Positions 1 through 45,708 of a stretch of DNA of 64,000 bases are shown here, piece by piece; the stretch's first letter is position 1, and the number at the start of each line of letters is the position of its first letter. The position numbers and the translations under genes are program-made. This DNA comes from Escherichia phage VEc25. The DNA is taken from the sequence record MW175414.1, one strand, 5' to 3'. The notes under the pieces were generated by a model. The model was given only the letters and a program-made list of their open reading frames with translations, was not told where the DNA came from and made no database searches.

Positions 1-89
1 TGGTGGGGCTACACCCCTTACACCATAAGCACCCCCCCCCTGTCTTTACTAGTGTAGCCTTAGCCTACCCCACCTTGTACACGTTACAC

Positions 90-102
90 GTTGCTTCGCA
101 AC
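90..102 (+). promoter_or_regulatory. Candidate hairpin promoter for virion RNA polymerase (5-bp stem, 3-nt loop)
   Basis: Inverted repeat gttgc-ttc-gcaac upstream of the first early ORF; the bottom-strand loop is GAA. N4-type vRNAP promoters are 5-7 bp stem / 3-nt loop hairpins. Confidence 0.35.
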
Positions 103-153
103 TTATGGACATGTTGTCCATATCTTATCAATCAACTATTGGAGACTAATACT

Positions 154-480
154 ATGACTACTCAGGCTAACGTTCGTATGACTGTAGGAACTCTGTTGGG
201 TACTGTTAACGAAGCAGCAACTACTGTAGCTGATACATTCGGTACTGCTACTAAAGCAGTAGGTATGCTTAATCGTTATGTAACTAAACAAGCAGATAAA
301 CAAATCATTCGTGACAAATTAGAAATGCATGAGTTTACCAATAAACTTATTGAAGAAACTGCAATGCAAGAAGCTATTCGTCAGAAACAAATTTTAGACT
401 TCTGCAAAGATGAACAAAACAAAGAATTGTTCTCTAATGCCTATGACCGTCTTAGCAAAATCTTAGCAGACTCTAAATAA
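154..480 (+). CDS. Hypothetical early protein
   Basis: ORF-track frame 91..480; first ATG at 154 is preceded by a ggaga RBS. Confidence 0.5.
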   Translation: MTTQANVRMTVGTLLGTVNEAATTVADTFGTATKAVGMLNRYVTKQADKQIIRDKLEMHEFTNKLIEETAMQEAIRQKQILDFCKDEQNKELFSNAYDRLSKILADSK

Positions 481-556
481 TAACAAACAAATGGAGGCTC
501 CTCGGAGTCTCCTTTTACATAGAACCGATAGTTCAATAACTATCTACTTTAAAGAT

Positions 557-573
557 AAGAAGCTCCGCTTCTT
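557..573 (+). promoter_or_regulatory. Hairpin promoter for virion RNA polymerase (7-bp stem, 3-nt loop)
   Basis: aagaagc-tcc-gcttctt followed by ttgg; the bottom-strand loop is GGA. The same ATAAG..GC-TCC-GC..CTT-TTGG pattern recurs at 4546. Confidence 0.55.
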
Positions 574-684
574 TTGGATGAAGTAATGCATCCAATCCTG
601 TATGAAATCTTAACCTTTTGTCTGGGATTACTTACCGACAAAGTAGTCTCAACTAATCAAAATCAACTATCTGGAGAGTACAAA

Positions 685-1071
685 ATGGCTATCACTACTT
701 TTGCTAAAACTTTTGGTCAGGCTTCTACTAAAACTGAATCCAACAATGGTTCTCGTCCGAAAGCTCAGTTCTGGATTAACGTTGGCTATGTAGCTAATGA
801 AGGCACTGAAGATGAACGTTTCATCTCTCTACCTACTGGTATTCCACTGGATACTCAGGAACATCTGCCAACCAATTCCTCTAACGAAGACTTCCGTGCA
901 ATGCGTTGTGCACAGAACGATTTGTTAGATCAACTGATGGAATTTGCTAAGACTCTGGAACCAGGTCAGGAAGGAGTTATCTCACTGCAAGTTCAACTTC
1001 GTCGAGTTAAAGAAGAAGCTCCTGCTATCTCAGCAAGTGAGAATAAATATGCTCGTAAACTGACTTTCTAA
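685..1071 (+). CDS. Hypothetical early protein
   Basis: ORF-track frame 574..1071 begins at a TTG inside the promoter hairpin; the ATG at 685 has a ggaga RBS (alternative ATG at 586). Confidence 0.5.
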
Positions 1072-1078
1072 TCTCTAT

Positions 1079-1105
1079 AGGACTACCTTCGGGTAGTCCT
1101 TTTTA
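1079..1105 (+). terminator. Rho-independent terminator
   Basis: aggactacc-ttcg-ggtagtcct stem-loop followed by TTTTT. Confidence 0.5.
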
Positions 1106-1171
1106 ATTTTAACTATCTAAATACTAAAGTAGAGATTTTGACCCTTTTCGACGAAGGGATACTAAAAAGTA

Positions 1172-1528
1172 ATGGATAGTTTGAGCAGATGTTTTAGAAG
1201 AAGGAGTATACAGATGCATCCTCTTATAAAACGATTCCTGATGGACTATCAGGAGTGGTTAGATAATGGAGCCAGTGAACCTCATTACCTGTTTGATAGG
1301 GGTAGTGGACTGTGTGTTCAACTAGGCAAGTATCTTAGAAGACAGCCAATCAGTGAAGAAACAGTAGATGCTCTGTGTAAGAGCTTTACTCATTTACTTC
1401 CTGATAATGATACCAATCTACCATTCAATGTAGATGTTCTCGACTACATGATGGAATGTTCTGATGGAAGATGTCATCTGAACCAAAGTCGAATTAATTG
1501 GATTAAGAGTCAGTTGGAGAGTAAGTAA
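1172..1528 (+). CDS. Hypothetical protein
   Basis: ORF in the early + strand operon. Confidence 0.4.
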   Translation: MDSLSRCFRRRSIQMHPLIKRFLMDYQEWLDNGASEPHYLFDRGSGLCVQLGKYLRRQPISEETVDALCKSFTHLLPDNDTNLPFNVDVLDYMMECSDGRCHLNQSRINWIKSQLESK

Positions 1529-1531
1529 ATT

Positions 1532-1969
1532 ATGTCATATGAAATTGTAAAACATTGGACTTCTAAGGCTGGGCTGAAGGCTTGGGTATTGCTGGTAAAT
1601 GGTGGTAGTCATCATTGCGGTTACGTAGAAATACCTGAAGCATTACTGGATAAAAACTTCTATGACTATATCTGTGATGGTGAAGAAACACTTCATATTG
1701 CAGTACATGGTGGAGTTACCTATCAAGGTGTTCCTCAGTGGGCTGATGGGATTAAAGTCATAGGTTATGACTGTGCTCATGCAGGGGATAAACTGAAATG
1801 TCCTAAACAATTCATTGGCTCTCTTAGGGAGAGACTCTATGAGGATTCTTATGGAGTATGGCGAGATGAAGAATACTGCATCAATGAATGTGAAAGCATG
1901 GCAGACCAGTTAATTAACCTGATACCAAAATTAGGGTTTAACGATGAAATTCAGAACAGTAATGGTTAA
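1532..1969 (+). CDS. Hypothetical protein
   Basis: ORF tightly packed after the preceding gene. Confidence 0.45.
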   Translation: MSYEIVKHWTSKAGLKAWVLLVNGGSHHCGYVEIPEALLDKNFYDYICDGEETLHIAVHGGVTYQGVPQWADGIKVIGYDCAHAGDKLKCPKQFIGSLRERLYEDSYGVWRDEEYCINECESMADQLINLIPKLGFNDEIQNSNG

Positions 1970-2309
1970 TGCTCTTGATACCAGGGGTAATGAAATCATT
2001 AGCTATAAAGTGCAAGGCTTTAAATGGTTCAAATGGAAAACATTAACTAGCTTTAAAGAATTTGAGAAAGATAAAGCTATTAAGTTAACCAAGAAATTGA
2101 ACCAACGTAAGAAGATTAAATTAGTTACTGTAATTAAATAAGGATAAGGCAATGCGTAAATCACTAATCATGGGAACCAAAGAAGACGTTGCTAAGATGA
2201 AAGCTAAACGTCAGATGAATAAAGCAGTAACGTTTGCAGAACGTTATAGTACGTCTGAACCAGTACGTCGTATTGTTACTTTCAACCATCCAGCTATTAA
2301 GGGTATGTA

Positions 2310-2519
2310 ATGCAAACTAAGGATAAGAAAGACTTAGAACGTCTTCTCCGTGTATATGGTGATTATGCATTGTTAGCAGAGATAACTAATATTATCGAAG
2401 AAGACTGTCGTAACGGTTATGCCAATAACCCACAAGCAATAATTCATCGTGATGCAGTAGTGCTTAGAGAAGCAGTCAGTAAGATGCAAGCATTACACCC
2501 ATTAAGGCAACGAGCATAA
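2310..2519 (+). CDS. Hypothetical protein
   Basis: ORF on the + strand. Confidence 0.4.
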   Translation: MQTKDKKDLERLLRVYGDYALLAEITNIIEEDCRNGYANNPQAIIHRDAVVLREAVSKMQALHPLRQRA

Positions 2520-2592
2520 ATAGGAGGGGGCTACTAAGCCCTCTTCTTATTTTTATCGTGGTTATTAAGCAACTATCTTAGAGGAAGGAATA

Positions 2593-2808
2593 ATGGAACA
2601 GTTAAACTACGGTTATAAGATTAAACGCAATCAAGTAAGAGGTTCTTGGTTATTTCTCATTTATGGCAAACCAATCTATGAATTACATCGTGGAGAGAAA
2701 TCCAAGACCTATTACGTAACTCATATTGCTACAGGAAAGACTCCTGCATGTGCAGGATTGCTTCGTGATGCAATTATGAAAGCATGTATGTTAGAAGGAC
2801 TTCTATGA
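2593..2808 (+). CDS. Hypothetical protein
   Basis: ORF with a ggaagg RBS. Confidence 0.4.
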   Translation: MEQLNYGYKIKRNQVRGSWLFLIYGKPIYELHRGEKSKTYYVTHIATGKTPACAGLLRDAIMKACMLEGLL

Positions 2809-3119
2809 ACCAAATCATTGCTATCCCGCAGCATAAAGCTCGTATTGCTGACAGGAATATTCGTATTCATTATCCAATGCCTTTGAGCAATCCATTTCAG
2901 AAAAATGAGAGAACCACGGATGAAGATATAGCAGCAGCTTATGAGGCATATCTTCGTAACCGTTTGGTAAGTGGTGACAAGCTCATTACGGCCGAAATGG
3001 AACGAATTGCTAAATTCGTTATGGATACTACTGACAAACCAGTTGGCCTCATCGGTAATGAACTGGAAGTGAATGTAATCCGTAAGATTATTATGGAGGC
3101 TCTTAATGGGAATCAGTGA
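2805..3119 (+). CDS. Hypothetical protein
   Basis: ORF-track frame 2784..3119; the ATG at 2805 overlaps the upstream stop. Preferred over the antisense ORF 2721..3155. Confidence 0.4.
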   Translation: MNQIIAIPQHKARIADRNIRIHYPMPLSNPFQKNERTTDEDIAAAYEAYLRNRLVSGDKLITAEMERIAKFVMDTTDKPVGLIGNELEVNVIRKIIMEALNGNQ

Positions 3120-3281
3120 ATCCCAGGCTATGGCTATTAAACAGTTAGCCTTCAACTGCCTTAGTGCTATGAAGGCATTTAATGAAGCAAAAACTTTCCC
3201 TGACCAGAATAAAGCTCGTATTCAACTTTATCAGTCTAAGAAAGATTTTGAAGAATATCTGGAAAGTATTACGGTGAAATA

Positions 3282-3602
3282 ATGAAAACAATATTAATTG
3301 TTCATGATGCTGATTTTAATGATGTTGATAAAATGATGCGTAATATTGATTATGTAGCTCAGACAACTCCAACATTTAAAGAAGAATTTACTCTATATTG
3401 TGATGCTAATTCACCATTAGTTCCCATTCTGAAAGAAGCCGGTTTACCCTTCTCTACAGATAATTTCCCTGAAGAACCTGATTATGTAATTTCATTTATT
3501 TATGACTTACATGATGGCTCAGAACCAAGTGAATTGGCTATGAGTCAATGGAAATCCAGAAGACCTGTATATGCATTTCAGGTAGTTAAATCAAGGGGTT
3601 AA
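3282..3602 (+). CDS. Hypothetical protein
   Basis: ORF on the + strand. Confidence 0.45.
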   Translation: MKTILIVHDADFNDVDKMMRNIDYVAQTTPTFKEEFTLYCDANSPLVPILKEAGLPFSTDNFPEEPDYVISFIYDLHDGSEPSELAMSQWKSRRPVYAFQVVKSRG

Positions 3603-3604
3603 CT

Positions 3605-3973
3605 ATGTTAGGTGATAACACTAATGCTCTGTTTGGGGTGTCAGCCAGACCCATTATCATTGTTAATAAACATCATGGTAAGAAAGGTGAATATATTGGG
3701 CGTGGTTCTCCTCTGGGTAATCCATTCGTTATTGGTAAAGATGGAACCAGAGAAGAAGTAATTGCCAAATATAAAGTATGGCTACAAGAACAGATTGATA
3801 AAGGTAATCCAGATGTACTGGATGAATTAAATCGTCTTGGTAATAAAGCCATTGATGAAAAAGGATTAGCTTTACAGTGCTTCTGTTATCCAAAACCTTG
3901 TCATGGCGAGGTTATTAAAGAGAAGTTAGTGAAAGCTATGTATAACTATTTTGTGGAAAATCCTAATGGATAA
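3605..3973 (+). CDS. Hypothetical protein with GRGSPLGNPF motif
   Basis: ORF; the GNPF-type motif is reminiscent of small phage-associated domains of unknown function. Confidence 0.45.
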   Translation: MLGDNTNALFGVSARPIIIVNKHHGKKGEYIGRGSPLGNPFVIGKDGTREEVIAKYKVWLQEQIDKGNPDVLDELNRLGNKAIDEKGLALQCFCYPKPCHGEVIKEKLVKAMYNYFVENPNG

Positions 3974-4151
3974 ACAATGCAAATGTGGTAAAGGCTATGT
4001 ATCCCAATGGGATGGTAAATGTGGTCATTGTAGAACCAAGAAAGAACAACGTGACCATGAATATGCACTTCAGGAAATGATTGTACCTGTTGAGAATTTA
4101 GGTATGGCTCCACTTGAGGCTTACAAATACATAAGGAGATTATGCAAATGA
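3966..4151 (+). CDS. Small Cys-rich (zinc-ribbon-like) protein
   Basis: CKCGKG...CGHC arrangement; ORF-track frame 3951..4151 with an internal ATG at 3966. Confidence 0.35.
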   Translation: MDKQCKCGKGYVSQWDGKCGHCRTKKEQRDHEYALQEMIVPVENLGMAPLEAYKYIRRLCK

Positions 4152-4528
4152 AAGAAGTATTCGTATTTGGTTCTAACCTTGCTGGTGTACATGGTGCAGG
4201 TGCTGCAAAGACAGCATATAAGAAACATGGAGCCAGATGGGGTAAAGGGCATGGTCATTATGGTGACAGCTATGCCATTCCCACTAAAGATACCAATATC
4301 AAAACGATGGCTATTGAAGACATTCGTACATTTGTAAATGCCTTCATTGTCTATGCTGCTAATCATCCAGAACTTAACTTTAAAGTTACTCGTGTAGGGT
4401 GTGGATTAGCTGGTATTGATGATTCTGTTATGGCCTCTATGTTTAAAAATGCCACTGGTAACTGTTCCTTTGACTTAGCATGGAAAAGTTACTTAGGGGA
4501 TGATTTCAACTACTGGGGAACGTTCTAA
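4142..4528 (+). CDS. Hypothetical protein with glycine-rich Rossmann-like motif
   Basis: N-terminal VFVFGSNLAGVHGAGAAKTA and C-terminal RVGCGLAGID motifs. Confidence 0.45.
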   Translation: MQMKEVFVFGSNLAGVHGAGAAKTAYKKHGARWGKGHGHYGDSYAIPTKDTNIKTMAIEDIRTFVNAFIVYAANHPELNFKVTRVGCGLAGIDDSVMASMFKNATGNCSFDLAWKSYLGDDFNYWGTF

Positions 4529-4545
4529 CTCATACATTAGGCAAT

Positions 4546-4562
4546 AAGCTGCTCCGCAGCTT
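4546..4562 (+). promoter_or_regulatory. Hairpin promoter for virion RNA polymerase (7-bp stem, 3-nt loop)
   Basis: aagctgc-tcc-gcagctt followed by ttgg, 40 nt upstream of the RNAP II genes; same pattern as the hairpin at 557. Confidence 0.55.
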
Positions 4563-4602
4563 TTGGTAATTAATATGTTTAACCAATTTTGGAGAATATG
4601 CG

Positions 4603-5412
4603 ATGTCTACTATCGAACATCAGATGCACCTCGAAAAGCTGTACAACAAGAACCAACTGTTACCAAGAATGCGTCAGGAGTTTGAAGAAAACTCCGGTAT
4701 TGATTTCAAAGCCTTCTTTGCACATATAGGCATTGATTACAAATTTGGCATTGATGCAATGGTTCAAATGGCTCTGCATAAGCGAGCTGACCTACCAACA
4801 TTAGTTGGTACATTGCGTCATCACTGCAAATCTGCACAGGAAGTAGCAGACAACCTTTTTAAGATGGCAAGTGAGGATTGCTTTAACTTTGACCCGACCA
4901 TCGACAAGTTCATTGTCATTTATACAATCAGCGATGACGTACAGCATGAACTGGATTCATTTCAATATCCACTACCTATGGTAGTACGTCCTAAGCTGTT
5001 AACTAAGAATTACGGTACTGGGTACTTCACATGTAATAAGAGTGTGATTCTTAAGAAGAACCATACTGACGATGACATCTGCTTAGACCATCTGAACCGT
5101 ATGAATAAGATTCCATTGTCTATCAATTGGGATGTAGCTCATATGGTTAAAAATGAATGGGCTAATTTGGATAAACCGAAAGAAGGTGAAACTCGTCAAG
5201 AGTTTGAAAAACGTGTACGTGCATTCCAGAAATACGACCGTACTGCACATGAAGTGATGGGTTTATTGACCCGGGAAGGCAATAAGTTCTATCTGACTCA
5301 TCGTCCGGATAAACGTGGTCGTACCTATTCTCAGGGATACCATGTGAACTACCAGGGAACCAGTTGGAACAAGGCTGTCCTTGAATTTGCTGAAAAAGAA
5401 GTAATTGATTAA
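4603..5412 (+). CDS. Phage RNA polymerase II, small subunit (N4 gp15-like)
   Basis: 269-aa ORF immediately upstream of the T7-like catalytic subunit; size and position match the N4 heterodimeric RNAP II. Confidence 0.65.
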   Translation: MSTIEHQMHLEKLYNKNQLLPRMRQEFEENSGIDFKAFFAHIGIDYKFGIDAMVQMALHKRADLPTLVGTLRHHCKSAQEVADNLFKMASEDCFNFDPTIDKFIVIYTISDDVQHELDSFQYPLPMVVRPKLLTKNYGTGYFTCNKSVILKKNHTDDDICLDHLNRMNKIPLSINWDVAHMVKNEWANLDKPKEGETRQEFEKRVRAFQKYDRTAHEVMGLLTREGNKFYLTHRPDKRGRTYSQGYHVNYQGTSWNKAVLEFAEKEVID

Positions 5413-5459
5413 GTAATCCATTAATGCAAGCCAATAGGCTAAGACGCGAGGAATATACA

Positions 5460-6674
5460 ATGCAAACTTTTACTGCCCGTGAATATCTGAAAATTGACAT
5501 TGCTAATAACTATGGTCTGGATAAAGAAGACTGGGATGACCGTATTGCATGGTTCGATAAGAATGAGAACAACCTACTGAACCTTGTAAGAGAAGCTGAA
5601 GAACCAGCCCTGTTCTACGCCGGTGTTAAAGCATGGATGGACGTTAAGGAAGGTAAGCCAATTGGTTATCCTGTTGCACTGGATGCTACATCATCTGGTC
5701 TACAGATTCTGGCTTGTCTGACTGGTGACCGTAGAGCTGCTGAACTATGTAACGTTGTTAACTATCGTGATGAAAGTGGCAAAGTTAAACGTCGTGATGC
5801 TTATACAGTTATCTACAACAAGATGCTGAACACTCTTGGTAAAGGTGCTCGTATCAAACGTAATGACTGTAAACAAGCAATCATGACTGCTCTGTATGGT
5901 TCAGAAGCTAAACCAAAGGAAGTATTTGGTGAAGGCATTATGCTCAACGTATTTGAAAGCACAATGAATGTGGAAGCACCTGCTGTATGGGAACTGAATA
6001 AATTCTGGTTACAGTGTGGTAATCCAGAGGCTTTCGTATATCACTGGGTAATGCCAGATGGCTTTAACGTATATATCAAAGTAATGGTAAATGAAGTGGA
6101 GACTGTCCACTTCTTAGATAAGCCATATGACTGTGTTCGTAAAGTACAAGGTACTGAAGAGAAGACTCGTATGCTATCTGCCAATACCACTCACTCTATT
6201 GATGGCCTAGTAGTACGTGAGCTGGTTCGTCGTTGTGATTATGACAAGAACCAGATTGAATACATCAAGGCTCTTTGCAATGGTGAAGCTGAATATAAGG
6301 CTTCTGAAAAGAACTATGGCAAAGCAATGGAACTGTGGGGCTATTATGAGAAGACAGGATTCCTGACTGCTCGTATCTTTGATTATCTGGATTCTGAAAC
6401 TATTAAATTAGTAAATACTCAGGACATTCTAGACCTGATTGAATCCATGCCTAAGAAGCCATTCCATGTACTCACTGTACATGACTGCTTCCGTTGCCTG
6501 CCTAACTATGGCAATGACATTCGTCGTCAGTACAACAACTTGTTAGCTACTATTGCTAAAGGCGACTTACTCTCTTTCATTATGAGCCAGGTTCTAGGCC
6601 AAGAAGTTACTATTGGCAAACTAGACCCGACTCTATGGGAAGATATATTAGAAACCGAATACGCTCTATCTTAA
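5460..6674 (+). CDS. Phage RNA polymerase II, catalytic subunit (T7-like, N4 gp16-like)
   Basis: 404 aa from the ATG at 5460; motif A-like VALDATSSGLQILA, motif B-like K..MTALYGS and motif C-like LTVHDCF. Confidence 0.75.
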   Translation: MQTFTAREYLKIDIANNYGLDKEDWDDRIAWFDKNENNLLNLVREAEEPALFYAGVKAWMDVKEGKPIGYPVALDATSSGLQILACLTGDRRAAELCNVVNYRDESGKVKRRDAYTVIYNKMLNTLGKGARIKRNDCKQAIMTALYGSEAKPKEVFGEGIMLNVFESTMNVEAPAVWELNKFWLQCGNPEAFVYHWVMPDGFNVYIKVMVNEVETVHFLDKPYDCVRKVQGTEEKTRMLSANTTHSIDGLVVRELVRRCDYDKNQIEYIKALCNGEAEYKASEKNYGKAMELWGYYEKTGFLTARIFDYLDSETIKLVNTQDILDLIESMPKKPFHVLTVHDCFRCLPNYGNDIRRQYNNLLATIAKGDLLSFIMSQVLGQEVTIGKLDPTLWEDILETEYALS

Positions 6675-6681
6675 TAACTAA

Positions 6682-6715
6682 GGCTATCCCTACGGGGGTA
6701 GCCTTTATTTTTTTA
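6682..6715 (+). terminator. Rho-independent terminator
   Basis: GC-rich stem-loop ggctatccc-tacg-ggggtagcc followed by a T-run. Confidence 0.6.
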
Positions 6716-6725
6716 GTAAATCATA

Positions 6726-7598
6726 ATGGATAGGCATTTAACCTATGAGGAAATTAAAATGCCTGTTCTTAAAGTGATGTTTCATAAAGACACCAACGTA
6801 GCTACTGTACTGGATGCCAGTGGTAGCCTTAGTGATGGTTCCGTTGAGGTGGGTACTTTCCATCACCCTGATGAAACGTATCCCGATAGTGTAACTATCT
6901 ATCATGGTGTCCGTGACCTGCTGTATAAACGCAGTGCTAAAGACCCATCTCAAACTGCTTCTTACCCAAATAACATTATCAATATGCAAGTTATCAGTAT
7001 TGATATGAAGGCAACTCCTCGCTTGATTCTGGGTACTGCATTGCCTCGTGTAATCTCTACTATTGAAGGTAAAGATGTAACCTGGCATGTAGATGTTGCT
7101 GGTGGTAAAGCACCATTGACTTACAAGTGGCAGTTTAAAGCTAATACTGTAGGTGCTGCTTTCGCTGATATTGATTCCGGAGAGAATCCTACAGCTAAAA
7201 CTGCAACTCTTATTAACCATGCAGTAACTGCTGAATCTGCTGGTACTTATAAAGTCATCATTACTGATGCTAACGGTACTACTATCGAGAGTTCTTCTCT
7301 GCTGGTTGTAGGAGTTCAGGAACCACCTGAAGTAGCTTCTATTGTTGCTTACCCAAGTCCACTGGCTCTATCAGTGGCTGATGATATTACTGAAGGTAAA
7401 ACAGTTAAGTTTTCTTCCCTGCCTGCTGGCTCTTTGATTGGTACTCTGTCCATTAAGACCCAGCCTGACAGTGGTAAAGCTACTGCTGAGATTAGTGGTA
7501 ATGTACTGACAGTTAAACCTGTAGCCGCAGGTGACACTACTGTAGTAGTCACCAACGGAACCAAGGAAGTAACTGTTACGGTTAATGTTACAGAGTAA
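6726..7598 (+). CDS. Ig-like domain protein, probable capsid decoration protein (N4 gp17-like)
   Basis: Repeated beta-rich T/V/S segments typical of bacterial Ig-like folds; position directly after RNAP II as in N4. Confidence 0.5.
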   Translation: MDRHLTYEEIKMPVLKVMFHKDTNVATVLDASGSLSDGSVEVGTFHHPDETYPDSVTIYHGVRDLLYKRSAKDPSQTASYPNNIINMQVISIDMKATPRLILGTALPRVISTIEGKDVTWHVDVAGGKAPLTYKWQFKANTVGAAFADIDSGENPTAKTATLINHAVTAESAGTYKVIITDANGTTIESSSLLVVGVQEPPEVASIVAYPSPLALSVADDITEGKTVKFSSLPAGSLIGTLSIKTQPDSGKATAEISGNVLTVKPVAAGDTTVVVTNGTKEVTVTVNVTE

Positions 7599-7620
7599 TG
7601 TGATTGTTTTTATGAATGTA

Positions 7621-7645
7621 GCCCTCCTTGTGAGGGCTTTTTAGT
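7621..7645 (+). terminator. Rho-independent terminator
   Basis: gccctcc-ttgt-gagggc followed by TTTTT. Confidence 0.6.
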
Positions 7646-7667
7646 ATTTATAGGAGAGTAAATAATT

Positions 7668-7982
7668 ATGGCTAATAAGAACTGTCTTCGTGTATGGCAT
7701 ATCCCTCAAGTACCCGGCAAAGCCTTCTATGTTGAAGTAGATTCAGTAGAAGAAGGTGTACGTATCATTGATATACTAGCCAACTATGACCTATTCCAGT
7801 ATGAGAACAATATCAAAGGTGATTACTGCAATGTCTCTGGTTTACAGATGTATGATGAACATATCACTGATGATGAAATGGAAGAGATGGGTCTGACTGA
7901 CCGTTGGGTAGACTGGTACTATGAAGATGACCAGAGCTTTTTTGATAACCCGAAAGAGTATTTGAATAATCTCAAGAAGTAA
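7668..7982 (+). CDS. Hypothetical acidic protein
   Basis: ORF with RBS; D/E-rich. Confidence 0.45.
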   Translation: MANKNCLRVWHIPQVPGKAFYVEVDSVEEGVRIIDILANYDLFQYENNIKGDYCNVSGLQMYDEHITDDEMEEMGLTDRWVDWYYEDDQSFFDNPKEYLNNLKK

Positions 7983-8022
7983 TTTCTTGGGGTTAATGAC
8001 CCTTATTAATTCCTTATCCTTT

Positions 8023-8046
8023 GCCCTCCTATGGAGGGCTTTTTTA
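8023..8046 (+). terminator. Rho-independent terminator
   Basis: gccctcc-tatg-gagggc followed by TTTTTT. Confidence 0.55.
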
Positions 8047-8056
8047 CGGAGTACAA

Positions 8057-38200: not shown

Positions 38201-41200
38201 GCAGGGTTAGTACTATCAGGGTCAGCCATGAAATGTTCTACCGTAAGGTGTTTCATTACATGGGTATAAAGTTCCTGAGCACGAGCCATAGCATGTGGGT
38301 CAATTACAGCTTCAGTTGCTAATGCAGCAGTAACCATCTGGAATACAGATTGTTCCTGAGCAGTCATATTGAAGCCACGAGACTGAACATCACGAACTAG
38401 TCGAGTAGCACTCATTAATGCATTAGCCACATTGCCACGACGTTCTACTTCTGTAACTGGGTCAGTACGAAGGTAATCAGTTACCAGTTTATCGAAGGTC
38501 TGATTTAACTGAGACAGACGTTCATTGTTACCATATGCTTTGCTATGGAACAGTGTGCCATCTTTAGCTACTGCCTGAGTTGTAGGTTGGCTACGCATCA
38601 GAATTGCAGAATTAAACAGCAGATTAGAGAACATATCTTCTCCCAATGCAGGAGCTTGTTTACGTCCCCAAATCAATTTCTTAATGGCCTGATAAACATC
38701 TTTCACCATTTGAACCAGTGAAGATGTTCTCTTCTGTTTAGCAGCCAGAGCACGGTTAGCTAACCCCCAAGCCATAAACTCATTAAGAGCAGCAGCTTTA
38801 GAAATAGCTGGGTCAACAAAGCCATTACTCAAATGACCTTCAATAGTTGCAATAGCATCAGCATATGCTTCTCTCATTTCTGGAGAATCTTTGGAAATAT
38901 CCAGAGAACGGAACTGTTCCATCAGACCTTCAAGGTTCTCAATAGCCTGCTTAGATGTAGGGCTTACTTCATTACCCTGATAGAAGGAATAAACTTCCTC
39001 GAAGGTAGAAGCATGAACCAGTTCATGAATGAGGGTTTCCATAGATGGGCTAACCAGATAAATGGTCTTATCGTCGAAGTTAGTCCAGCCATAAATATTA
39101 CCTGCCTGAGCTTCTTCCATTTCCTGAGAAGTCAATTCAGTAACATTCTTCTGACGAGCATATTCTGCAACCTGAGTAGGTGTACCGTAGATAATCTTAT
39201 AGTCTTTAGCTGCCAGTGATTTCTGAATCTCTGCAAGAGTAGCTGCCTGAGTAGATGGCAGATTACTAATCTTAGCCAGGTTACGAATAGCAGTAGCAGA
39301 CAGGATACGAACACCGGATGCCTTATGCTCACGGCCTACCATACCAAAGTCTGGATTCACTGGTTCTTTTTCAGAAACAGTTTCTTCTTTGACTTCAGCC
39401 TTAGCCTTAGCGACTTTTTGTTTACGGGCTTCTAACTCTTCACGGAAAAGTTTATTCAGTTCATCAGCCTGTTGTTCAGGAGTCATATTGCTGAGGTCAA
39501 TCTTACCGTTGTTCTGATAAGGAGCACCTACAGCAGCCATCTGGTCAATGGACAGATTTACCTTATCCAGTACCTTATGGCGAATATCTACACCCAGTGC
39601 AATATTACGTAAGTTACGTTCAATCAGAGATGCAGCATTAGCAATATCATCTACAGTAGCATTCTCACGTTGGTCATATTCCAGGGCAGATTTACCAATT
39701 GCTTCCAATGCTTCAGGGGACAACTTGCTGAAATCTACATTCTTCATGAACTTAGTATATGATTCGTAAACATTCTTAATAGGGTTACCCTGCCAAGAAG
39801 TGTAAACAGCTTCATTAGCCTTACGACTAGCATCAGTAATGTCATTCAAACCAATGTTCATACCATCAAAGATTTTGAGGGTATTCTTTGGTGCACCTTT
39901 CATAGTGGAAAGAGTTTGCATCATCATGCCATCACCAGTACCAATAGTCATAAATGGAATACCTGCTACACCAGCCTGTGCTGGGGCATAGATACTCATT
40001 GGTACACGCATACGGTCATCAAGGTTAGTAGCTAATACCTGATTTGCTACTTCTGCATTTTCTGAGCCAGCAATGTAGAAAGTCTGAGAACCAGTCTCAA
40101 TCATAGGAGCTAAGTTATTCAGAGAAGCCTGAATATCATTCAGTTCTTTCTGAGTAAGGAAATCGCCTTTCTTCCATGTCGGGTCTTTAGCCTTCTCTGT
40201 CAGTTTCTCCTGTACTCGTTGTTTGAACATATCTTCCAGCACTACAGATTGAATCTGAGTAGCTTTCTGTAATTGTTCAGTGGAGTACACCAGACTTTCA
40301 CCTACAGTCTGAGTAATACCATTACGTAGTGGTTCTACAAAGAAGTGCAGCATATTTTCCTGAAGTGCCTTCAGTTGCTCACCCTTAATGGTATAGGTCT
40401 TAGGATTGATTTTCCCTTTGGCTCCTGCACCTGTGGATTGTAGTTCCAGTACACCTTTACGTTTAACAGGAACAGTAGAAGTCAGTGTTTCCATATCTTT
40501 CAGGAAACGAGCAAGAAGTTCTTCAGCATGTGCTTCTGAAGCAGCTTGCTTACCAAACATTGCCATAGCAGCAGAGATGTTTGGGTCTTTAGCACGAGCT
40601 TTCAGTACATCAGACATACGCTCATAGATGGCATCAGTAACAGAACTAACCAGCTTACCTGCAATACCACGAGCACCAGAACCATAGATAGTAATAGTCA
40701 GTGGGTTCTTAGCAATACCACGTTTAAGTTCTAAAGCACCATTCTCACCAAGATTAATATCCGGTAAGAACAAATCCATCAGAGAAAGAAGACTGTCTAT
40801 CTGGGACTGAATAGGCATATTAGAAGCGTAGTTACTACGTAACTTACCCAACGATTCCATCAAAGCATTAGTGGATGCTTGATATAAATCATTATTGTCA
40901 GCAGTAGAACGATGCTCATTCATGGTCTTATTTGGAGAACCAATGAATAAACCACCTTTGGCAATGTTACGAATCCAGTCAGGGGTAAACAGGCCACCTG
41001 TCATTAGCATCATGGCATTGATTGGACCATTAGTAACACCATCTGCTTCTACATACAGTGGGGTTACAAATGCAGATTTATCCTCTGCTACTAAGTAACG
41101 GGAATACTCCATAAGAGCCATCAATGCTACGAATGACTTCCTATCTCCTAATGCTGTATTCAGAACATCAACTGCATTTTCTGGTAAGGAACCAGTGGTA

Positions 41201-44200
41201 TTAAACTCAACCATCATATCAATGGCTGGTTTCAGATTACCTTCCAGTAATTTAGTTAACTCATCTGACATAACCTCACGAGTCATAGTATGGACTTTAA
41301 TGTCCAATGCCTGAGCCAGACCTAACTGGAATGCAGAGAAGTCTTCATTGTTCTGGTTCGATAAATCCAAAGTAGCTTTAGTAGGTAGGATAGCCTCACG
41401 AACCAGTTTGGCTGATTGAGGATTGTATTTACCTAACATCTGCATACGACCAACACGGGTCATATTGTATGCATAGTGAATAGGCACAGTAGAGATGTCT
41501 TCACTCTGTGCTCTTACCTGCTCAATGACGGAGAACAGTTGGTTGTAAGAGTCCTCTACTGAACGGTTCTTACCTTCCAGAGATTTAGCATGATTATCAT
41601 TAAGTAACTCTTTATTCAGAGTACCAGCACCCATCAGTTCGAGAATACGGTCTTTACCTAACGTCTCATAGAATTGAACCATTGGAGTGTGTACATAGAA
41701 CTCTGTAGCCTGTTCTGCTTTCAATGCAGCCTTCTGTTCTGGAGTATTACGAACAGCAGGATTACGAAGCTGAGTATTAGCTACAGGAGGAATGTCATTA
41801 CCAAAGAACATCTTCTCTGTAGGATTTACTAAAACAGCTTCTTCAATAGCAGTAGGGAAGCTATTAATTGGGTCGAAGGAATCCAGTTCAGTAATGGTGT
41901 ACAGACCAATCGTCTTCTTATTATCTGGGTCAATTTCTGACATATCCACGATGTTCTCTACAACATCAGTAGACTCTACAAATGCAGCCAGAATTTCAGC
42001 AGCCATTGCTGTAGGGATACCTTTGGTATAACCCAATGGAGCATTTGGATTACGAGATAATCCCCAGTAAGACTCAATTTTCTGAGCCAGGGAACTAACT
42101 GCTTCAGTGAGTGTCATACCAGTATCAAATTGCTCTACTAAACCCTCTGGCAGCAGAGCTTGGTCAATACCAGTAATAGCAGCAACATCTTTTGCATCTT
42201 TGATAGCAGTATTGCTGGTAGCAGTAAGTCTCCACTGAAGACCTGCTAATACAGCAGTCTGTAGCAATTGCTCGTTGTACTTAAAGGTATCCCCATCCTG
42301 TTCAACGATGTTAAGTAACTTACCACCTACCCAACGGTTGGCTTCTGTACCCTGAGCAAAACGTTTACCAACATCCTTAGTGTTAAGGAACTTAGCCAGA
42401 CGGGAACGAAGAATACCAGCAATACCTTCCCCATGTTCCATGAGTTCTTTATATCGCTTAATAACTTCCCCATTAAAAGCAGGATTAGCAACTTCTTTCT
42501 CAGTAAAGAGTTCATAACGAGCACGAGAAGACAGAGCTTGAGCTACCTCTTTTAGAGGTGCTTCTGAACCAACAGTACGGGATTTCTGTTCTTCCGGTAA
42601 GGTAAAGGACAATTTGAAATAGTTCTTAATACCCTCTGCTTTAGAATCAGCAGTACCTACTAGTGAAGGGTAAACAGCATCAATACCTTCTCTTAATTCT
42701 TCTGTAACTGTACTTTCTTTTGCAGAAGTTTCAGTTTCTTTAACAGATTCAGTAGGTTGCTTGATGTTGTCCTCATTAGTAAGGTTAACATCCCGTTTTT
42801 CAGACTGGCTCACAGGTTCTTTTATAGCCTGTGGTCTAGACTCTTTAGTAGTAGGTTCTGTTTTAACAGGTTCACTAACAGGAGTCTTAGTCTGTACAGT
42901 AGATGTAACTGGTTCCTGTTTTGTAACAGGAGTTTCTTTAACCTGATTCACGGAGTCAGCTTTCTGTTGAGAAGAAGCAACGTCTCGATTGCCTTGACGG
43001 AATGCCTTGACCACCTCAGCAGCAGGGGCGTTAAGACGTGAATCCAATGGAGTAACTTCTATATGACTGACCTTCAGTTCCGGGTAAGCCGAAGCGAGGG
43101 CATTAGCAATATCCGCTACCGTTTTCGCTTCAAGAGCAACTTGCTGGGCAAATTTAACCGACTTAGTGTCATAGGGATTGACCCCCAATCCGGTACGGCT
43201 ACGAACCCATTCTCTGTCGGCAGTAAGAGCTTGGTAGTGGACAGACTTATTCTTATCCGCATTCCCCGTAACAAGATGCTCATTCAACGCTCCAACCTTA
43301 TTCTGCATGTGCTGGGCGAACTGCATAAAGTCGTTCAGGTAAGCGGAGGCCAACTCGAAATTACCAGAGTTATACGCAGACCGAATCCTATTCGCATGTT
43401 GCAACGCAGAGTATTGTCCTTCCTGAGTTCTGCTCTCATCCGTTTTAATCTGTTTACTCACAATGTCTTGAGGACGTAATCCAAGACGGGCAGCTTCTGC
43501 ATCATATTCCCGTGCCCCCTTCAGGATTGCAGCAGCATTCTGAAGGGCAGCAATTTGGCGATTATTCAGTTTAATACGACCATCAGCAGCATGTTTAAGA
43601 ACAACATTTACAGATTCTGGATTGAGCTTTTCAGGAGCTACTTCAGCAGCTAATGCTACGTTCTGCATTTCCTGTGGACTGGATTCTTCAGTCACATCCA
43701 AAGAACCATTCTGGGCAGATTCATTAATCATTCGATTAATGACATTCAATGCACCAATTACTTTTGGTGTGTTCTGAATATTAGCTGTCAGATTTGTGTA
43801 ACGATTGAGTAACTCAATAGCCGGAGAATCTTTAGGAATGCTATCCAGTGCAGCAGGGTCACGGTTAATGAATTGCTCAAACTCTGAAACAGCATCATAC
43901 ATATAAGATGCAGCTTCCATCAGTGCTTGAGGATTAGATTCATCTAATGTGTTAACTAGGTCTGCTAACTTTTGAATAACCTGTACTTGGTCAGTAGAAC
44001 CAGCTACAGCATTACGAATATGCTCTGGTGCTTCCTGATAATTTTCAGGATTAAAACGAGTAGCATTCATTAAGTCAGAAACATACTGGTGTGCTGCAAC
44101 TTTCTGTTCTGGAGTAGCATCAGTTGCTTCAACAGCATCACGAATAGTAACTTCTGCTTCTGGTGCTTGAGCCATAGCTTCTTGTGCTGCCTGTGCAACA

Positions 44201-45708
44201 TAGTCATCAGCAACAGGAGATGCTTCTTCATTCTGCTTCATAACCCGTTCACCACGAGCTACCAAAGTGTTCTTAATAGGGGAAACAACCTTACCTGCTA
44301 CACTACCAGCAGCTTTAACACCAGCCATTGTGGTACGCAATACAGGAGCAGTTGCAGCACCTGCTAAACGAGCAGCACCAGCCGGAGCCTGTACAACACC
44401 AGCAGAACCAAAGCCATAAAGAGCACCTAAACCAGCTTGTGTACCGACACCTTTAAGCAGGTCTTGGTTCTTATCAATGTTTTGTTGCTGTGCAATATTC
44501 TGAGCCAGTTGGCCTGTAGCACCCTGAACACCTTCTTCCACTGTTTCACGGGCAAGGTTCATACCTACAGCACCTAAAGAACCAGCACGGAAAGGAGCCA
44601 TCTCAAAACGAGATACCAGAGGACCAGTTGCAGCAGCAATAGGTAATTGAATAGCAGCAGCAGTAAGACCAGTTTCAGATGCAGTCTGACGACGAGCCTG
44701 TTCTGGAGACATACCATCTTTAATATGTTGTTGATAAACAGGAGACTTCTCTAAGTCTTTAAGACTCATCTTCATAATTTCATCAGCAGTTTGTTGGTAT
44801 GCACCACCAGCTTCCATTGCACCAACACCAACTATACCTGGTGCAGCTCTGCCTACAGTAGAAGCAATACGAGCCAGGGACTGAGTACCAGTACCTGCAT
44901 CAATAGCACCAGCCAATGCAGCACTACGAAGAGTATTTACTGGAACAACTGCTTTACCCAGTAAAGATGCACCCCTTAATACAGGACCAGCACCTAATAG
45001 AGAACCTACCCCTTCCGCTAACCCATCAGAAATAATAGAGTCAGTTTGAGCAGCGTTCTCAATTGAACCTACAAAATCACGTCCAAATTTAGATAAGGAA
45101 GCTACTATGTCATTAGTGCCTTCTTTCTTATCTGTTTGATACTGACGTTCACTCTCTACTTCACTCATTAAGTTACGAGCAGCAAAGAGCTTACGTTTAT
45201 CTTGTAATGCTTGGCTTTGGGTAGCATGGACAGCATCATTAAACTTACTCAATTGTTGAGCAACAACAGCACCTGCATCATCGTTGAGTAAGCCTGCTCC
45301 AAGAGCACCAATGCCCCCAAGGGTATTAACAAAACCAAGACCAACACCAGTAGCAATATCCCCCAGTTCTTCCCCAGGAGTTCTTGTAGTAACTGAATCA
45401 TTAAATACCTGGTTCCCTGCATCAGCACGAGCGTTGATAAGTTGTAAGCCTTGCTCAACCCCATACTTATTCATGATTTGCATTGGAGTCAGATTCATGA
45501 AATCTGATTGCACTGTCCCTGGTTCAAATGCATTAGCCCCAACATTACCAGTACGGGCAGCTTGCATTTGATAAGCAGCATCAGGAGAAACAAGAGGAGT
45601 AGTGACACCTTGTTCAGCTTTCTTCTGGGCGGTTGCAGTAGAGACGTCAACTTGCTTTGCATTGGTTACGCTGTCTGCGAACCCAGCCAGTCTATCAAAT
45701 ACTGACAT
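35206..45708 (-). CDS. Virion-encapsidated RNA polymerase (N4 gp50-like), 3500 aa
   Basis: Giant ORF with an ATG at 45708; the central region carries T7-like motif A (EADGVTNGPINAMML), motif B (KRGIAKNPLTITIYGSG) and a motif C-like IFDGMN segment. Confidence 0.85.
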   Translation of the reverse strand: MSVFDRLAGFADSVTNAKQVDVSTATAQKKAEQGVTTPLVSPDAAYQMQAARTGNVGANAFEPGTVQSDFMNLTPMQIMNKYGVEQGLQLINARADAGNQVFNDSVTTRTPGEELGDIATGVGLGFVNTLGGIGALGAGLLNDDAGAVVAQQLSKFNDAVHATQSQALQDKRKLFAARNLMSEVESERQYQTDKKEGTNDIVASLSKFGRDFVGSIENAAQTDSIISDGLAEGVGSLLGAGPVLRGASLLGKAVVPVNTLRSAALAGAIDAGTGTQSLARIASTVGRAAPGIVGVGAMEAGGAYQQTADEIMKMSLKDLEKSPVYQQHIKDGMSPEQARRQTASETGLTAAAIQLPIAAATGPLVSRFEMAPFRAGSLGAVGMNLARETVEEGVQGATGQLAQNIAQQQNIDKNQDLLKGVGTQAGLGALYGFGSAGVVQAPAGAARLAGAATAPVLRTTMAGVKAAGSVAGKVVSPIKNTLVARGERVMKQNEEASPVADDYVAQAAQEAMAQAPEAEVTIRDAVEATDATPEQKVAAHQYVSDLMNATRFNPENYQEAPEHIRNAVAGSTDQVQVIQKLADLVNTLDESNPQALMEAASYMYDAVSEFEQFINRDPAALDSIPKDSPAIELLNRYTNLTANIQNTPKVIGALNVINRMINESAQNGSLDVTEESSPQEMQNVALAAEVAPEKLNPESVNVVLKHAADGRIKLNNRQIAALQNAAAILKGAREYDAEAARLGLRPQDIVSKQIKTDESRTQEGQYSALQHANRIRSAYNSGNFELASAYLNDFMQFAQHMQNKVGALNEHLVTGNADKNKSVHYQALTADREWVRSRTGLGVNPYDTKSVKFAQQVALEAKTVADIANALASAYPELKVSHIEVTPLDSRLNAPAAEVVKAFRQGNRDVASSQQKADSVNQVKETPVTKQEPVTSTVQTKTPVSEPVKTEPTTKESRPQAIKEPVSQSEKRDVNLTNEDNIKQPTESVKETETSAKESTVTEELREGIDAVYPSLVGTADSKAEGIKNYFKLSFTLPEEQKSRTVGSEAPLKEVAQALSSRARYELFTEKEVANPAFNGEVIKRYKELMEHGEGIAGILRSRLAKFLNTKDVGKRFAQGTEANRWVGGKLLNIVEQDGDTFKYNEQLLQTAVLAGLQWRLTATSNTAIKDAKDVAAITGIDQALLPEGLVEQFDTGMTLTEAVSSLAQKIESYWGLSRNPNAPLGYTKGIPTAMAAEILAAFVESTDVVENIVDMSEIDPDNKKTIGLYTITELDSFDPINSFPTAIEEAVLVNPTEKMFFGNDIPPVANTQLRNPAVRNTPEQKAALKAEQATEFYVHTPMVQFYETLGKDRILELMGAGTLNKELLNDNHAKSLEGKNRSVEDSYNQLFSVIEQVRAQSEDISTVPIHYAYNMTRVGRMQMLGKYNPQSAKLVREAILPTKATLDLSNQNNEDFSAFQLGLAQALDIKVHTMTREVMSDELTKLLEGNLKPAIDMMVEFNTTGSLPENAVDVLNTALGDRKSFVALMALMEYSRYLVAEDKSAFVTPLYVEADGVTNGPINAMMLMTGGLFTPDWIRNIAKGGLFIGSPNKTMNEHRSTADNNDLYQASTNALMESLGKLRSNYASNMPIQSQIDSLLSLMDLFLPDINLGENGALELKRGIAKNPLTITIYGSGARGIAGKLVSSVTDAIYERMSDVLKARAKDPNISAAMAMFGKQAASEAHAEELLARFLKDMETLTSTVPVKRKGVLELQSTGAGAKGKINPKTYTIKGEQLKALQENMLHFFVEPLRNGITQTVGESLVYSTEQLQKATQIQSVVLEDMFKQRVQEKLTEKAKDPTWKKGDFLTQKELNDIQASLNNLAPMIETGSQTFYIAGSENAEVANQVLATNLDDRMRVPMSIYAPAQAGVAGIPFMTIGTGDGMMMQTLSTMKGAPKNTLKIFDGMNIGLNDITDASRKANEAVYTSWQGNPIKNVYESYTKFMKNVDFSKLSPEALEAIGKSALEYDQRENATVDDIANAASLIERNLRNIALGVDIRHKVLDKVNLSIDQMAAVGAPYQNNGKIDLSNMTPEQQADELNKLFREELEARKQKVAKAKAEVKEETVSEKEPVNPDFGMVGREHKASGVRILSATAIRNLAKISNLPSTQAATLAEIQKSLAAKDYKIIYGTPTQVAEYARQKNVTELTSQEMEEAQAGNIYGWTNFDDKTIYLVSPSMETLIHELVHASTFEEVYSFYQGNEVSPTSKQAIENLEGLMEQFRSLDISKDSPEMREAYADAIATIEGHLSNGFVDPAISKAAALNEFMAWGLANRALAAKQKRTSSLVQMVKDVYQAIKKLIWGRKQAPALGEDMFSNLLFNSAILMRSQPTTQAVAKDGTLFHSKAYGNNERLSQLNQTFDKLVTDYLRTDPVTEVERRGNVANALMSATRLVRDVQSRGFNMTAQEQSVFQMVTAALATEAVIDPHAMARAQELYTHVMKHLTVEHFMADPDSTNPADRYYAQQKYDTISGANLVEVDAKGRTSLLPTFLGLAMVNEELRSIIKEMPVPKADKKLGNDVDTLLTNTGTQVMESLNRRMAGDQKATNVQDSIDALSETIMTAALKRESFYDAVATPTGNFIDRANQYVTDSIERLSETVIEKADKVIANPSNVAAKGVAHLAKLTAAIASEKQGEIVAQGVMTAMNQGKVWQPFHDLVNDIVGRTKTNANVYDLIKLVKSQISQDRQQFREHLPTVIAGKFSRKLTDTEWSAMHTGLGKTDLAVLRETMSMAEIRDLLSSPKKVKDEISTLEKEIQNQAGRNWNLVQKKSKQLAQYMITGEVGNNLLRNAHAISRLLGERITNGPVADVAAIDKLITLYSLELMNKSDRGLLSELAQSEVEGMEFSIAYMVGQRTEEMRKAKSDNRTLLNHFKGYIPVENQQGVNLIIADDKEFAKLNSQSFTRIGTYQGSTGFRTGSKGYYFSPVAARAPYSQGILQNVRNTAGGVDIGTGFTLGTMVAGRITDKPTVERITKALAKGERGREPLMPIYNSKGQVVAYEQSVDPNMLKHLNQDNHFAKMVGVWRGRQVEEAKAQRFNDILIEQLHAMYEKDIKDSSASKSQYVNLLGKIDDPVLADAINLMNIETRRKAEELFGKDELWVRRDMLNDALGYRAASIGDVWTGNSRWSPSTLDTVKKMFLGAFGNKAYHVVMNAENTIQNLVKDAKTVIVVKSVVVPAVNFLANIYQMIGRGVPVKDIAVNIPRKTSEINQYIKSRLRQIDAEAELRAAEGNPNLVRKLKTEIQSITDSHRRMSIWPLIEAGEFSSIADAGISRDDLLVAEGKIHEYMEKLANKLPEKVRNAGRYALIAKDTALFQGIQKTVEYSDFIAKAIIYDDLVKRKKKSSSEALGQVTEEFVNYDRLPGRFRGYMESMGLMWFYNFKIRSIKVAMSMIRNNPVHSLIATVVPAPAMFGNVGLPIQDNMLTMLAEGRLDYSLGFGQGLRAPTLNPWFNLTH

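Follow-up and report, generated by a model that had tools for sequence, protein, structure and literature searches.

Three hairpins at the left end of Escherichia phage VEc25 are almost certainly the N4 early virion RNA polymerase promoters P1, P2, and P3

Results

The window analyzed here, a 64,000-nucleotide stretch of the Escherichia phage VEc25 record MW175414.1, carries three short DNA hairpins that are almost certainly the early virion RNA polymerase (vRNAP) promoters P1, P2, and P3 of coliphage N4. Their function in the VEc25 isolate is assigned by sequence identity with N4. The original prediction had placed hairpins at 90–102 (5-bp stem, loop TTC), 557–573, and 4546–4562 (7-bp stems, loop TCC), all of which can be read directly from the sequence, and the N4 vRNAP promoter architecture proposed for them is correct, the hairpins and their flanks being the same in N4 at P1–P3. 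P1–P3 are already known, and there is nothing new in the hairpin promoters themselves. Discovery value is small; these are among the best-characterized promoters of any phage. Their starts have been mapped, they have been mutagenized, and structures of the polymerase on P2 exist from both crystallography and cryo-EM. The case does show that a non-canonical, structure-based promoter was recognizable to a first-stage reader from raw sequence.

Hairpin geometry and identity with N4

P1 (90..107, −17 to +1) reads GTTGC-TTC-GCAAC, with a 5-bp stem (90–94/98–102), the loop TTC at 95–97, its centre at 96 (−11), and a predicted start at G107, from which transcription would run rightwards into gp1. P2 (557..576, −19 to +1) reads AAGAAGC-TCC-GCTTCTT, with a 7-bp stem (557–563/567–573), the loop TCC at 564–566 (centre 565), and a predicted start at G576, and would drive gp2. 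P3 (4546..4565, −19 to +1) reads AAGCTGC-TCC-GCAGCTT, with a 7-bp stem (4546–4552/4556–4562), the loop TCC at 4553–4555 (centre 4554), and a predicted start at G4565, and would drive the RNAPII subunit genes gp15/gp16. All three lie on the + strand in the first 4.6 kb, upstream of gp1, gp2, and RNAP1.

The 5–7-bp stem and 3-nt loop required of N4 vRNAP promoters are present with perfect pairing at all three sites, and the minimum-free-energy DNA folds there are the P1–P3 hairpins themselves. Published promoter determinants were taken from a review (PMC4496689), which requires a G(A/G)A template loop (−10G, −11 purine, −12A). The non-template loops TTC, TCC, and TCC give the template-strand loops GAA, GGA, and GGA at P1, P2, and P3, and the functional hairpin of P1 on the template (minus) strand is GTTGC-GAA-GCAAC. 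Template-strand folding energies are −3.7, −5.3, and −7.3 kcal/mol, respectively (z-scores −2.6 to −3.4). At every site, a GCTYCGC heptamer centred on −11 supplies the loop-closing C:G pair and template −8G, and the template-strand determinants −12A, −11 purine, −10G, −9C, −8G, and +1C are found throughout. The predicted +1 is in each case a G located 11 nt downstream of the loop centre (107, 576, and 4565), with TTAT or TTTT before it and another G after it; the required template +1C is thus in place at these predicted 5′ ends. The published N4 geometry has the loop centre at −11, template +1C, and initiation with GTP (PMC4496689).

A shared consensus of ATAAG-stem-TCC-stem-TTTTGG had also been proposed for the two 7-bp copies. 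Its downstream flank is indeed conserved, as T-T-W-T-G-G at −4 to +2, but AAG and the first TT belong to the 7-bp stem, and the upstream AT does not hold as a shared flank: N4 has G at P2 −20, and relatives vary.

Bases 1–5000 are colinear with N4 1–5000 at 98.1% identity (99.1% for PMBT57), and by this comparison the VEc25 window belongs to a member of the N4 species. From −19 to +1, P1, P2, and P3 do not differ from the mapped vRNAP promoters of the N4 reference genome and have equal coordinates; the two phages share the hairpins with their loops and closing pairs, the T-run that follows, the +1 G, and the downstream genes gp1, gp2, and gp15/16. The N4 promoters were described by Haynes and Rothman-Denes (1985), Glucksmann (1992), and Dai and Rothman-Denes (1998) (via PMC4496689). 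The only base change relative to N4 near the promoters is at P2 −20 (window 556), T here and G in N4, which falls outside the −17 to +1 promoter span; the T is common to 12 other N4-species isolates. The P2 region (535–600) is 100% identical in twelve N4-species phages. The published P2 template oligonucleotide ...CCAAAAGAAGCGGAGCTTC..., used for vRNAP cryo-EM, equals the minus strand of window 557–575 (PMC13492108).

Specificity of the combined motif

The window is rich in perfect 3-nt-loop hairpins with stems of 5 bp or longer (about 115 per strand), and the GCTYCGC heptamer alone is not enriched there (4 found versus 4.0 expected), which is what would be anticipated if the three sites were chance hairpins in an AT-rich phage genome. 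Only the combined motif is therefore specific: the window has 3 instances of a perfect stem (5 bp or more) with GC-TYC-GC and GG at +1/+2, whereas 200 dinucleotide shuffles yielded 0. P1–P3 all fit the pattern GCTYCGC-NN-CTTWTGG, which matches nowhere else in the 64 kb; its three matches are on the + strand. The 16-nt pattern GCTYCGCNNCTTWTGG likewise has exactly three zero-mismatch matches, all on the + strand, and the runners-up carry 2–3 mismatches. The fourth GCTYCGC heptamer (53147–53153, minus strand) is without a hairpin.

The original prediction had called for a genome-wide motif search for further copies; it returned these three matches and no further promoter copy in the 64-kb window or in N4 63900–70153. 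A relaxed scan for a fourth promoter, requiring −11 Y, −10 C, −8 C, +1 G, and a minimum of four of the five stem pairs, gave only weak sites at 1280, 18300, 48806, 56344, 45931 (minus strand), and 28462 (minus strand), which were rejected because all of them lack both the GC closing dinucleotides and the downstream T-run. A 7-bp hairpin inside the gp21 homologue, AAGAAAG-TTC-CTTTCTT (9180–9194), has a P2-like stem but was rejected for want of the −9/−8 GC and +1 G. A right-end copy of P1 was also sought in N4 63900–70153 and none was found there; therefore, the N4 record appears to hold a single copy of the terminal repeat. Positions 1–9000 contain fewer sigma-70-like sites than expected (12 found versus 26.7 ± 5.7).

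Conservation and covariation in related phages

Sites in relatives were picked by the motif GCTNCGC-N7-GG only, and stem pairing was no criterion. At 35 of the 38 distinct sites so selected, the three variable stem pairs are all Watson–Crick. In a formal count, 87% of pairs in relatives are paired versus 69% in shuffles, and the covariation score is 0.479 versus 0.139 in shuffles; neither value was reached by any of 500 shuffles. Double-sided changes number 9 at −17/−5, 16 at −16/−6, and 18 at −15/−7. The motif-selected related sites thus carry the compensatory changes of an element in which pairing is needed and base identity is free. GCTYCGC is invariant among them. Conservation does not extend to the two outermost pairs of the 7-bp stems, which form at 26 and 19 of the 38 sites; this lends modest support to a pairing constraint across the Enquatrovirinae that is confined to the five inner pairs. 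In agreement with this, published work has vRNAP melting the two outer base pairs of the stem (PMC4496689).

In other Enquatrovirinae (G7C-like Gamaleyavirus, Klebsiella phage KP8, and Shigella phage Moo19), the GC-TCC-GC core, a 5–7-bp stem, and GG at +1 are shared, and the promoters lie, as in the window, upstream of gp1, gp2, and RNAP1 homologues; the stem sequences differ from those of the window through compensatory changes. The homologous hairpins that precede gp1 in relatives differ in their stems (ACATGC/GCATGT, for example), sites homologous to P2 also carry compensatory stem changes, and AGCTGC-TCC-GCAGCT is found syntenic with P3 upstream of RNAP1 in PhAPEC7, Moo19, and St11Ph5. The GenBank record of KP8 labels the homologous hairpins "early promoter." The P1 loop is TTC in the window and N4 and TCC in relatives, and several relatives have a fourth promoter before an extra gene between gp1 and gp2 (St11Ph5, centre 897; KP8, 962–983). 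For loci found via the RNAP1 protein (L030–L064, identity no higher than 63%), the 150 nt upstream contain no comparable hairpin, and these loci are therefore uninformative on P3. Conservation of the motif, with covariation, at syntenic positions in other genera stands against chance hairpins in the same way as the shuffles; that explanation, to which virtually no probability attaches, is ruled out by the shuffle and comparative tests.

Intergenic inverted repeats upstream of genes might also be double-stranded palindromic operators for a dimeric phage or host regulator. The centre of each repeat (TCC or TTC) is, however, asymmetric, and its orientation is always gene-sense, as at all 35 well-formed sites in relatives, which are on the + strand. 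Stem bases that are free to change if pairing is kept are the signature of a folded single strand, not of a sequence-specific duplex, and the arms are just 5–7 bp. Operators are accordingly a highly improbable reading of these sites.

Early genes, terminator-like sites, and the start of gp2

gp1 (154..480, + strand), the first gene of the predicted P1 transcript, is supported by the N4 annotation, the ORF list, and its start context, with GGAGA (141–145) upstream of ATG 154. RNAP1 (gp15; 4603..5412, + strand), annotated in N4 as a subunit of RNAPII, the middle-gene polymerase, would be the first gene of the P3 transcript; its ATG at 4603 is also preceded by GGAGA. A consensus scan calls a terminator-like hairpin and T-run on the + strand after gp1 (493..516), with similar sites after gp2 (1079–1104) and gp7 (2522–2557). 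Such sites number 15 in 1–9000 versus 5.2 ± 2.3 expected, and those after gp1, gp2, and gp7 are probable ends of early transcription units.

These sites bear on whether P1–P3 are themselves intrinsic terminators, or RNA-level stem-loops that end or stabilize upstream transcripts. A short T-run (CTTTTGG) does follow the P2 and P3 stems, and the stop codons of gp14 and gp1 lie 18 nt before P3 and 77 nt before P2, respectively. The hairpins that the scan calls, however, are other, longer GC-rich ones with real T-runs (493–512 after gp1, 1079–1100 after gp2, and 2522–2547 after gp7), not P1–P3, and P1, at the genome end, has no upstream gene to terminate. A terminator would need neither the sequence-invariant loop and closing pairs nor GG at a fixed 11-nt distance, and the sequences equal mapped N4 start sites. 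A role in termination is thus very unlikely, and P1–P3 are read here as promoters.

The mechanical ORF list does, as originally noted, contain starts at TTG 91 and TTG 574 that run through the hairpins. Both lie upstream of the predicted +1 and therefore cannot start translation on P1 and P2 transcripts. The downstream ATGs at 154 and 685 had been put forward as the true starts; 154 agrees with the GenBank start of gp1, but 685 as the sole start of gp2 is unsupported, since 586–684 is conserved as protein and GenBank places the start at 586. The long form of gp2 (586..1071, + strand) has 161 aa. Its first codons (586–684) are conserved as protein in 15–17 distinct relatives, always in frame (93, 99, or 132 nt) and stop-free, with a codon-position pattern typical of coding sequence. 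These features give modest support to ATG 586 as the opening of a conserved N-terminal extension, which is hydrophobic and about 33 aa long, and so to the annotated start on evolutionary grounds, a point relevant to anyone expressing gp2.

ATG 586 lies just 10 nt downstream of the P2 +1, and a conserved ATG or GTG (window 586) would follow the start of the P2 transcript by 8–11 nt. The in-frame ATG 685 follows an invariant GGAGAG within a 16-nt Shine–Dalgarno stretch that is all but invariant (one synonymous C/T); it would yield a 128-aa core and may be, at most, a second, internal start. The predicted masses are 18.0 kDa for the long form and 14.3 kDa for the short form. Production of two gp2 isoforms, the long one from a near-leaderless mRNA together with the short core, is a tentative and rather doubtful proposal. 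If true, the long form could explain the reported membrane association of gp2 and middle transcription.

Cognate polymerase, proposed mechanism, and other systems

The predicted reader of P1–P3 is encoded in the same window. The vRNAP gp50 (3,500 aa; 35206..45708, minus strand) was taken from the ORF list, where its mechanical ORF opens 6 codons earlier, at TTG 45726. A central segment of 1,106 aa can be aligned from one end to the other with the mini-vRNAP chains 3q0a, 3c3l, and 2po4 from PDB and also with residues 998–2103 of the full-length chains. The promoter-contact residues K114, R119, W129, K267, K268, K849, K850, D901, and R904 are all present; the window thus holds a cognate vRNAP whose polymerase domain aligns in full with the crystallized mini-vRNAP and retains the contact residues.

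In N4, initiation is rifampicin-resistant in vivo and depends on DNA gyrase and Escherichia coli SSB, and single-stranded templates support initiation in vitro (PMC4496689). From identity with N4, we infer the transcription start sites of VEc25 and the same dependence on gyrase and SSB, and the mechanism for P1–P3 is drawn from the N4 literature. The left genome end would enter the cell first and be supercoiled by host DNA gyrase, and the short inverted repeats would extrude as cruciforms. E. coli SSB would melt the non-template hairpin and leave the unusually stable template-strand hairpin, with its 5′-G(G/A)A-3′ loop and C:G closing pair. The injected vRNAP would then read the hairpin shape and the specific bases −11 purine, −10G, −8G, and +1C, and hairpin binding would open its active site. 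Initiation with GTP would fall 11 nt past the loop centre, at G107, G576, and G4565, and the early transcripts would code for gp1, gp2, and gp15/gp16 (the RNAPII subunits), which would turn on middle transcription.

The Pseudomonas N4-like phage LUZ7 resembles this arrangement in having a stem of at least 4 bp, a conserved 3-nt loop, a G start, and an injected vRNAP (PMC9163698). It differs in that ONT-cappable-seq puts the distance from hairpin centre to start at 13–14 nt, against 11 here, and maps nine early start sites, against three (PMC9163698). vRNAP is a T7-like single-subunit polymerase, and its specificity loop and intercalating hairpin recognize the promoter over about −17 to +1 as in T7 RNA polymerase, whereas T7 promoters are double-stranded sequence elements and those of N4 are hairpins of single-stranded DNA, dependent on supercoiling and SSB (PMC4496689).

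N4 virion RNA polymerase promoters at the left end of VEc25

The left end of VEc25 carries three perfect hairpins with 3-nt loops on the + strand, which can be read directly from the sequence with the positions, stems, and loops originally predicted: P1 at 90–102 (GTTGC-TTC-GCAAC, 5-bp stem), P2 at 557–573 (AAGAAGC-TCC-GCTTCTT, 7-bp stem), and P3 at 4546–4562 (AAGCTGC-TCC-GCAGCTT, 7-bp stem). Common to all three is the 16-nt pattern GCTYCGC-NN-CTTWTGG. The flanking formula first proposed for the two 7-bp copies, ATAAG-stem-TCC-stem-TTTTGG, counts AAG and TT twice, both being part of the stem, and its upstream AT is not conserved: N4 has G at window position 556. The T found there in the window (position −20), the only base around P2 that differs from N4, falls beyond the promoter span of −17 to +1 and is shared with 12 other N4-species isolates.

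Window 1–5000 matches the N4 left end (EF056009, 1–5000) as a single colinear piece at 98.1% identity, and other N4-species isolates reach up to 99.1% (PMBT57). The N4 annotation transfers directly, placing gp1 at 154–480, gp2 at 586–1071, gp3–gp14 between gp2 and RNAP1, RNAP1 at 4603–5412, and RNAP2 from 5460. N4 has P1–P3 unchanged and at matching coordinates. N4 promoters have a 3-nt loop, and N4 virion RNA polymerase (vRNAP) recognizes template-strand −11A/G, −10G, −8G, and +1C, with a sheared pair between −10G and −12A, a contact to −9C, and four template A's as a ruler to the start (PMC4496689). With the loop centre as −11, the template strand of every site has A at −12, G at −10, C at −9, G at −8, and C at +1, with A at −11 in P1 and G in P2 and P3; the non-template +1 G falls at 107, 576, and 4565, respectively. 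A 2026 cryo-EM structure used a P2 oligonucleotide, ...CCAAAAGAAGCGGAGCTTC..., whose sequence is that of the window's minus strand at 557–575. Folded as single-stranded DNA, the template strands form exactly these hairpins (−3.7, −5.3, and −7.3 kcal/mol for P1, P2, and P3; z-scores −2.6 to −3.4). The reading as N4-type vRNAP promoters is supported, and P1–P3 are already known in full detail.

The polymerase itself is encoded on the minus strand by a mechanical ORF of 3,506 codons (35206–45726); the sign of the GC skew switches near 36 kb. Its central segment of 1,106 residues gives an end-to-end alignment with the mini-vRNAP crystal chains 3q0a, 3c3l, and 2po4 and also aligns with residues 998–2103 of full-length 3,500-residue chains, which places the true start at 45708, six codons inside the ORF. 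The published promoter contacts K114, R119, W129, K267, K268, K849, K850, D901, and R904 are all present.

Number of promoters and early transcription

The GCTYCGC heptamer alone occurs at chance level in the window (4 matches versus 4.0 expected), and perfect hairpins with 3-nt loops are frequent (115 per strand). Across the 64 kb, the 16-nt pattern matches without mismatch at exactly three places, all of which lie on the + strand and inside the first 4.6 kb; the closest of the remaining hits carry 2–3 mismatches. The combined motif (stem of at least 5 bp, GC-TYC-GC, and GG at +1/+2) was found three times in the window versus 0 in 200 dinucleotide-preserving shuffles. A relaxed scan of the window gave no fourth copy; its weak sites were rejected, as they lacked closing GC pairs and a downstream T-run. 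N4 63900–70153 likewise held no copy of the hairpin promoter. One 2026 paper mentions "four early promoters (P1–P4)" in its discussion and three in its introduction; no fourth site for a P4 was found in the window. A perfect 7-bp hairpin resembling the P2 stem (9180–9194, AAGAAAG-TTC-CTTTCTT), within the gp21 homologue, lacks GC closing pairs and the +1 G and is probably a chance occurrence or relic.

By analogy with the N4 literature, the left genome end would enter the cell first, gyrase-driven supercoiling would extrude the cruciform, and Escherichia coli SSB would melt the non-template hairpin while the template hairpin is kept; hairpin binding by vRNAP would then open its active site, with GTP initiation at +1. 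Across window 1–9000, sigma-70-like promoter matches are depleted (12 versus 26.7 ± 5.7 expected) and terminator-like hairpins enriched (15 versus 5.2 ± 2.3), the latter located on the + strand behind gp1, gp2, gp7, gp16, and later genes, both consistent with the N4 mechanism.

Covariation of the promoter stems in related phages

Left-end regions of PhAPEC7, Moo19, Mimir124, St11Ph5, and KP8 were compared, together with 23 loci with gp2 homologues and 13 with gp1 homologues. The same element precedes the homologues of gp1, gp2, and RNAP1, with other stem sequences, such as AAGACGC/GCGTCTT, AAGATGC/GCATCTT, GGCTGC/GCAGCC, and GACGC/GCGTC at P2 and ACATGC/GCATGT at P1; the KP8 record labels its four homologous hairpins "early promoter." Against circularity, sites were chosen by GCTNCGC-N7-GG only, with no stem demanded. 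All three variable stem pairs were Watson–Crick in 35 of 38 distinct sites, and all 35 were in gene sense. Paired cells made up 87% of the 38-site alignment versus 69% in shuffles, a level reached by 0 of 500 shuffles, and the covariation score was 0.479 versus 0.139 in shuffles and 0.07–0.12 in slid registers. Double-sided changes numbered 9 at −17/−5, 16 at −16/−6, and 18 at −15/−7. In the 7-bp form, the outer two base pairs were formed in just 26 and 19 of the 38 sites, which fits the structural finding that vRNAP melts the two outer base pairs of the stem (PMC4496689).

A fourth hairpin promoter of this type is present in Gamaleyavirus and Kaypoctavirus relatives, before an extra small gene inserted between gp1 and gp2 (889–905, centre 897, in St11Ph5 locus L005; 962–983 in KP8 locus L081; centre 970 in locus L009). 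N4 and the window have no equivalent. Candidate hairpins were also seen upstream of gp2 homologues in more distant N4-like contigs (centres 1418 in L021/L022, 1412 in L025, and 34 in L027). Their non-template loops, TAC or TGC, retain the T (−12) and the C (−10) and give a pyrimidine at −11 of the template strand, which hints that the central loop base may co-vary with polymerase specificity.

Translation starts of gp1 and gp2

The mechanical ORF list opens ORFs at TTG 91 and TTG 574, as had been noted, and both were rightly dismissed: they are excluded as starts on P1 and P2 transcripts because they lie upstream of the predicted +1 (107 and 576). The proposed gp1 start at 154 agrees with GenBank and is preceded by GGAGA at 141–145. 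The one correction to the original prediction concerns gp2, whose proposed start at 685 contradicts both GenBank (586) and the comparative data.

Codon 586 begins 10 nt past the P2 +1, and 15–17 distinct Enquatrovirinae sequences have ATG or GTG 8–11 nt past the promoter +1, with 93, 99, or 132 nt, every time a multiple of three, from that codon up to the core ATG. The extension contains no in-frame stops versus 1–3 in each of the other frames. Among its first 18 codons, variable columns number 12 at the first, 3 at the second, and 9 at the third codon position. Substitutions conservatively exchange one hydrophobic residue for another, and a serine changes codon family (AGT to TCC). Judged from these alignments, the extension has the pattern of translated sequence: window 586–684 encodes a hydrophobic N-terminal extension of ~33 residues conserved at the protein level across Enquatrovirinae. 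Farther gp2 homologues have no extension and start at the core ATG. The 16 nt preceding this ATG, ATCTGGAGAGTAYAAA (window 669–687 region), are invariant except for one synonymous C/T and far more conserved than the remaining extension, which argues for a function of the internal Shine–Dalgarno sequence before 685 as well. The data are best read as a genuine start at 586, with 685 possibly serving as a second. gp2 could possibly be made as two isoforms, with predicted products of 18.0 kDa (from 586) and 14.3 kDa (from 685); gp2 has been found in the membrane fraction in the literature.

Left genome end and terminal repeat

An 8-bp palindrome, TATGGACA-TGT-TGTCCATA (window 104–122), overlaps the P1 start, and the P1 transcript is predicted to open with a 5′-terminal stem-loop, GGACA-UGU-UGUCC. 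GGAC...GTCC is retained in PhAPEC7, St11Ph5, KP8, and Moo19, and the stem-loop may stabilize the 5′ end or influence promoter clearance. The extreme left end (window 1–89) is strongly conserved across four genera, with the blocks GGGGCTACA, CCCTTACAC, a run of 7–9 C (window 34–42), and CCCTACCCCACCT and with recurring TACAC motifs, and probably serves as a signal for the genome terminus or for packaging. This block lies at ~2510 in the Moo19 record, which is therefore permuted. The KP8 right end (L071, 72822–73679) repeats P1 and the first 86 gp1 codons; the direct terminal repeat thus includes P1, and the N4 record appears to hold just one copy of it.
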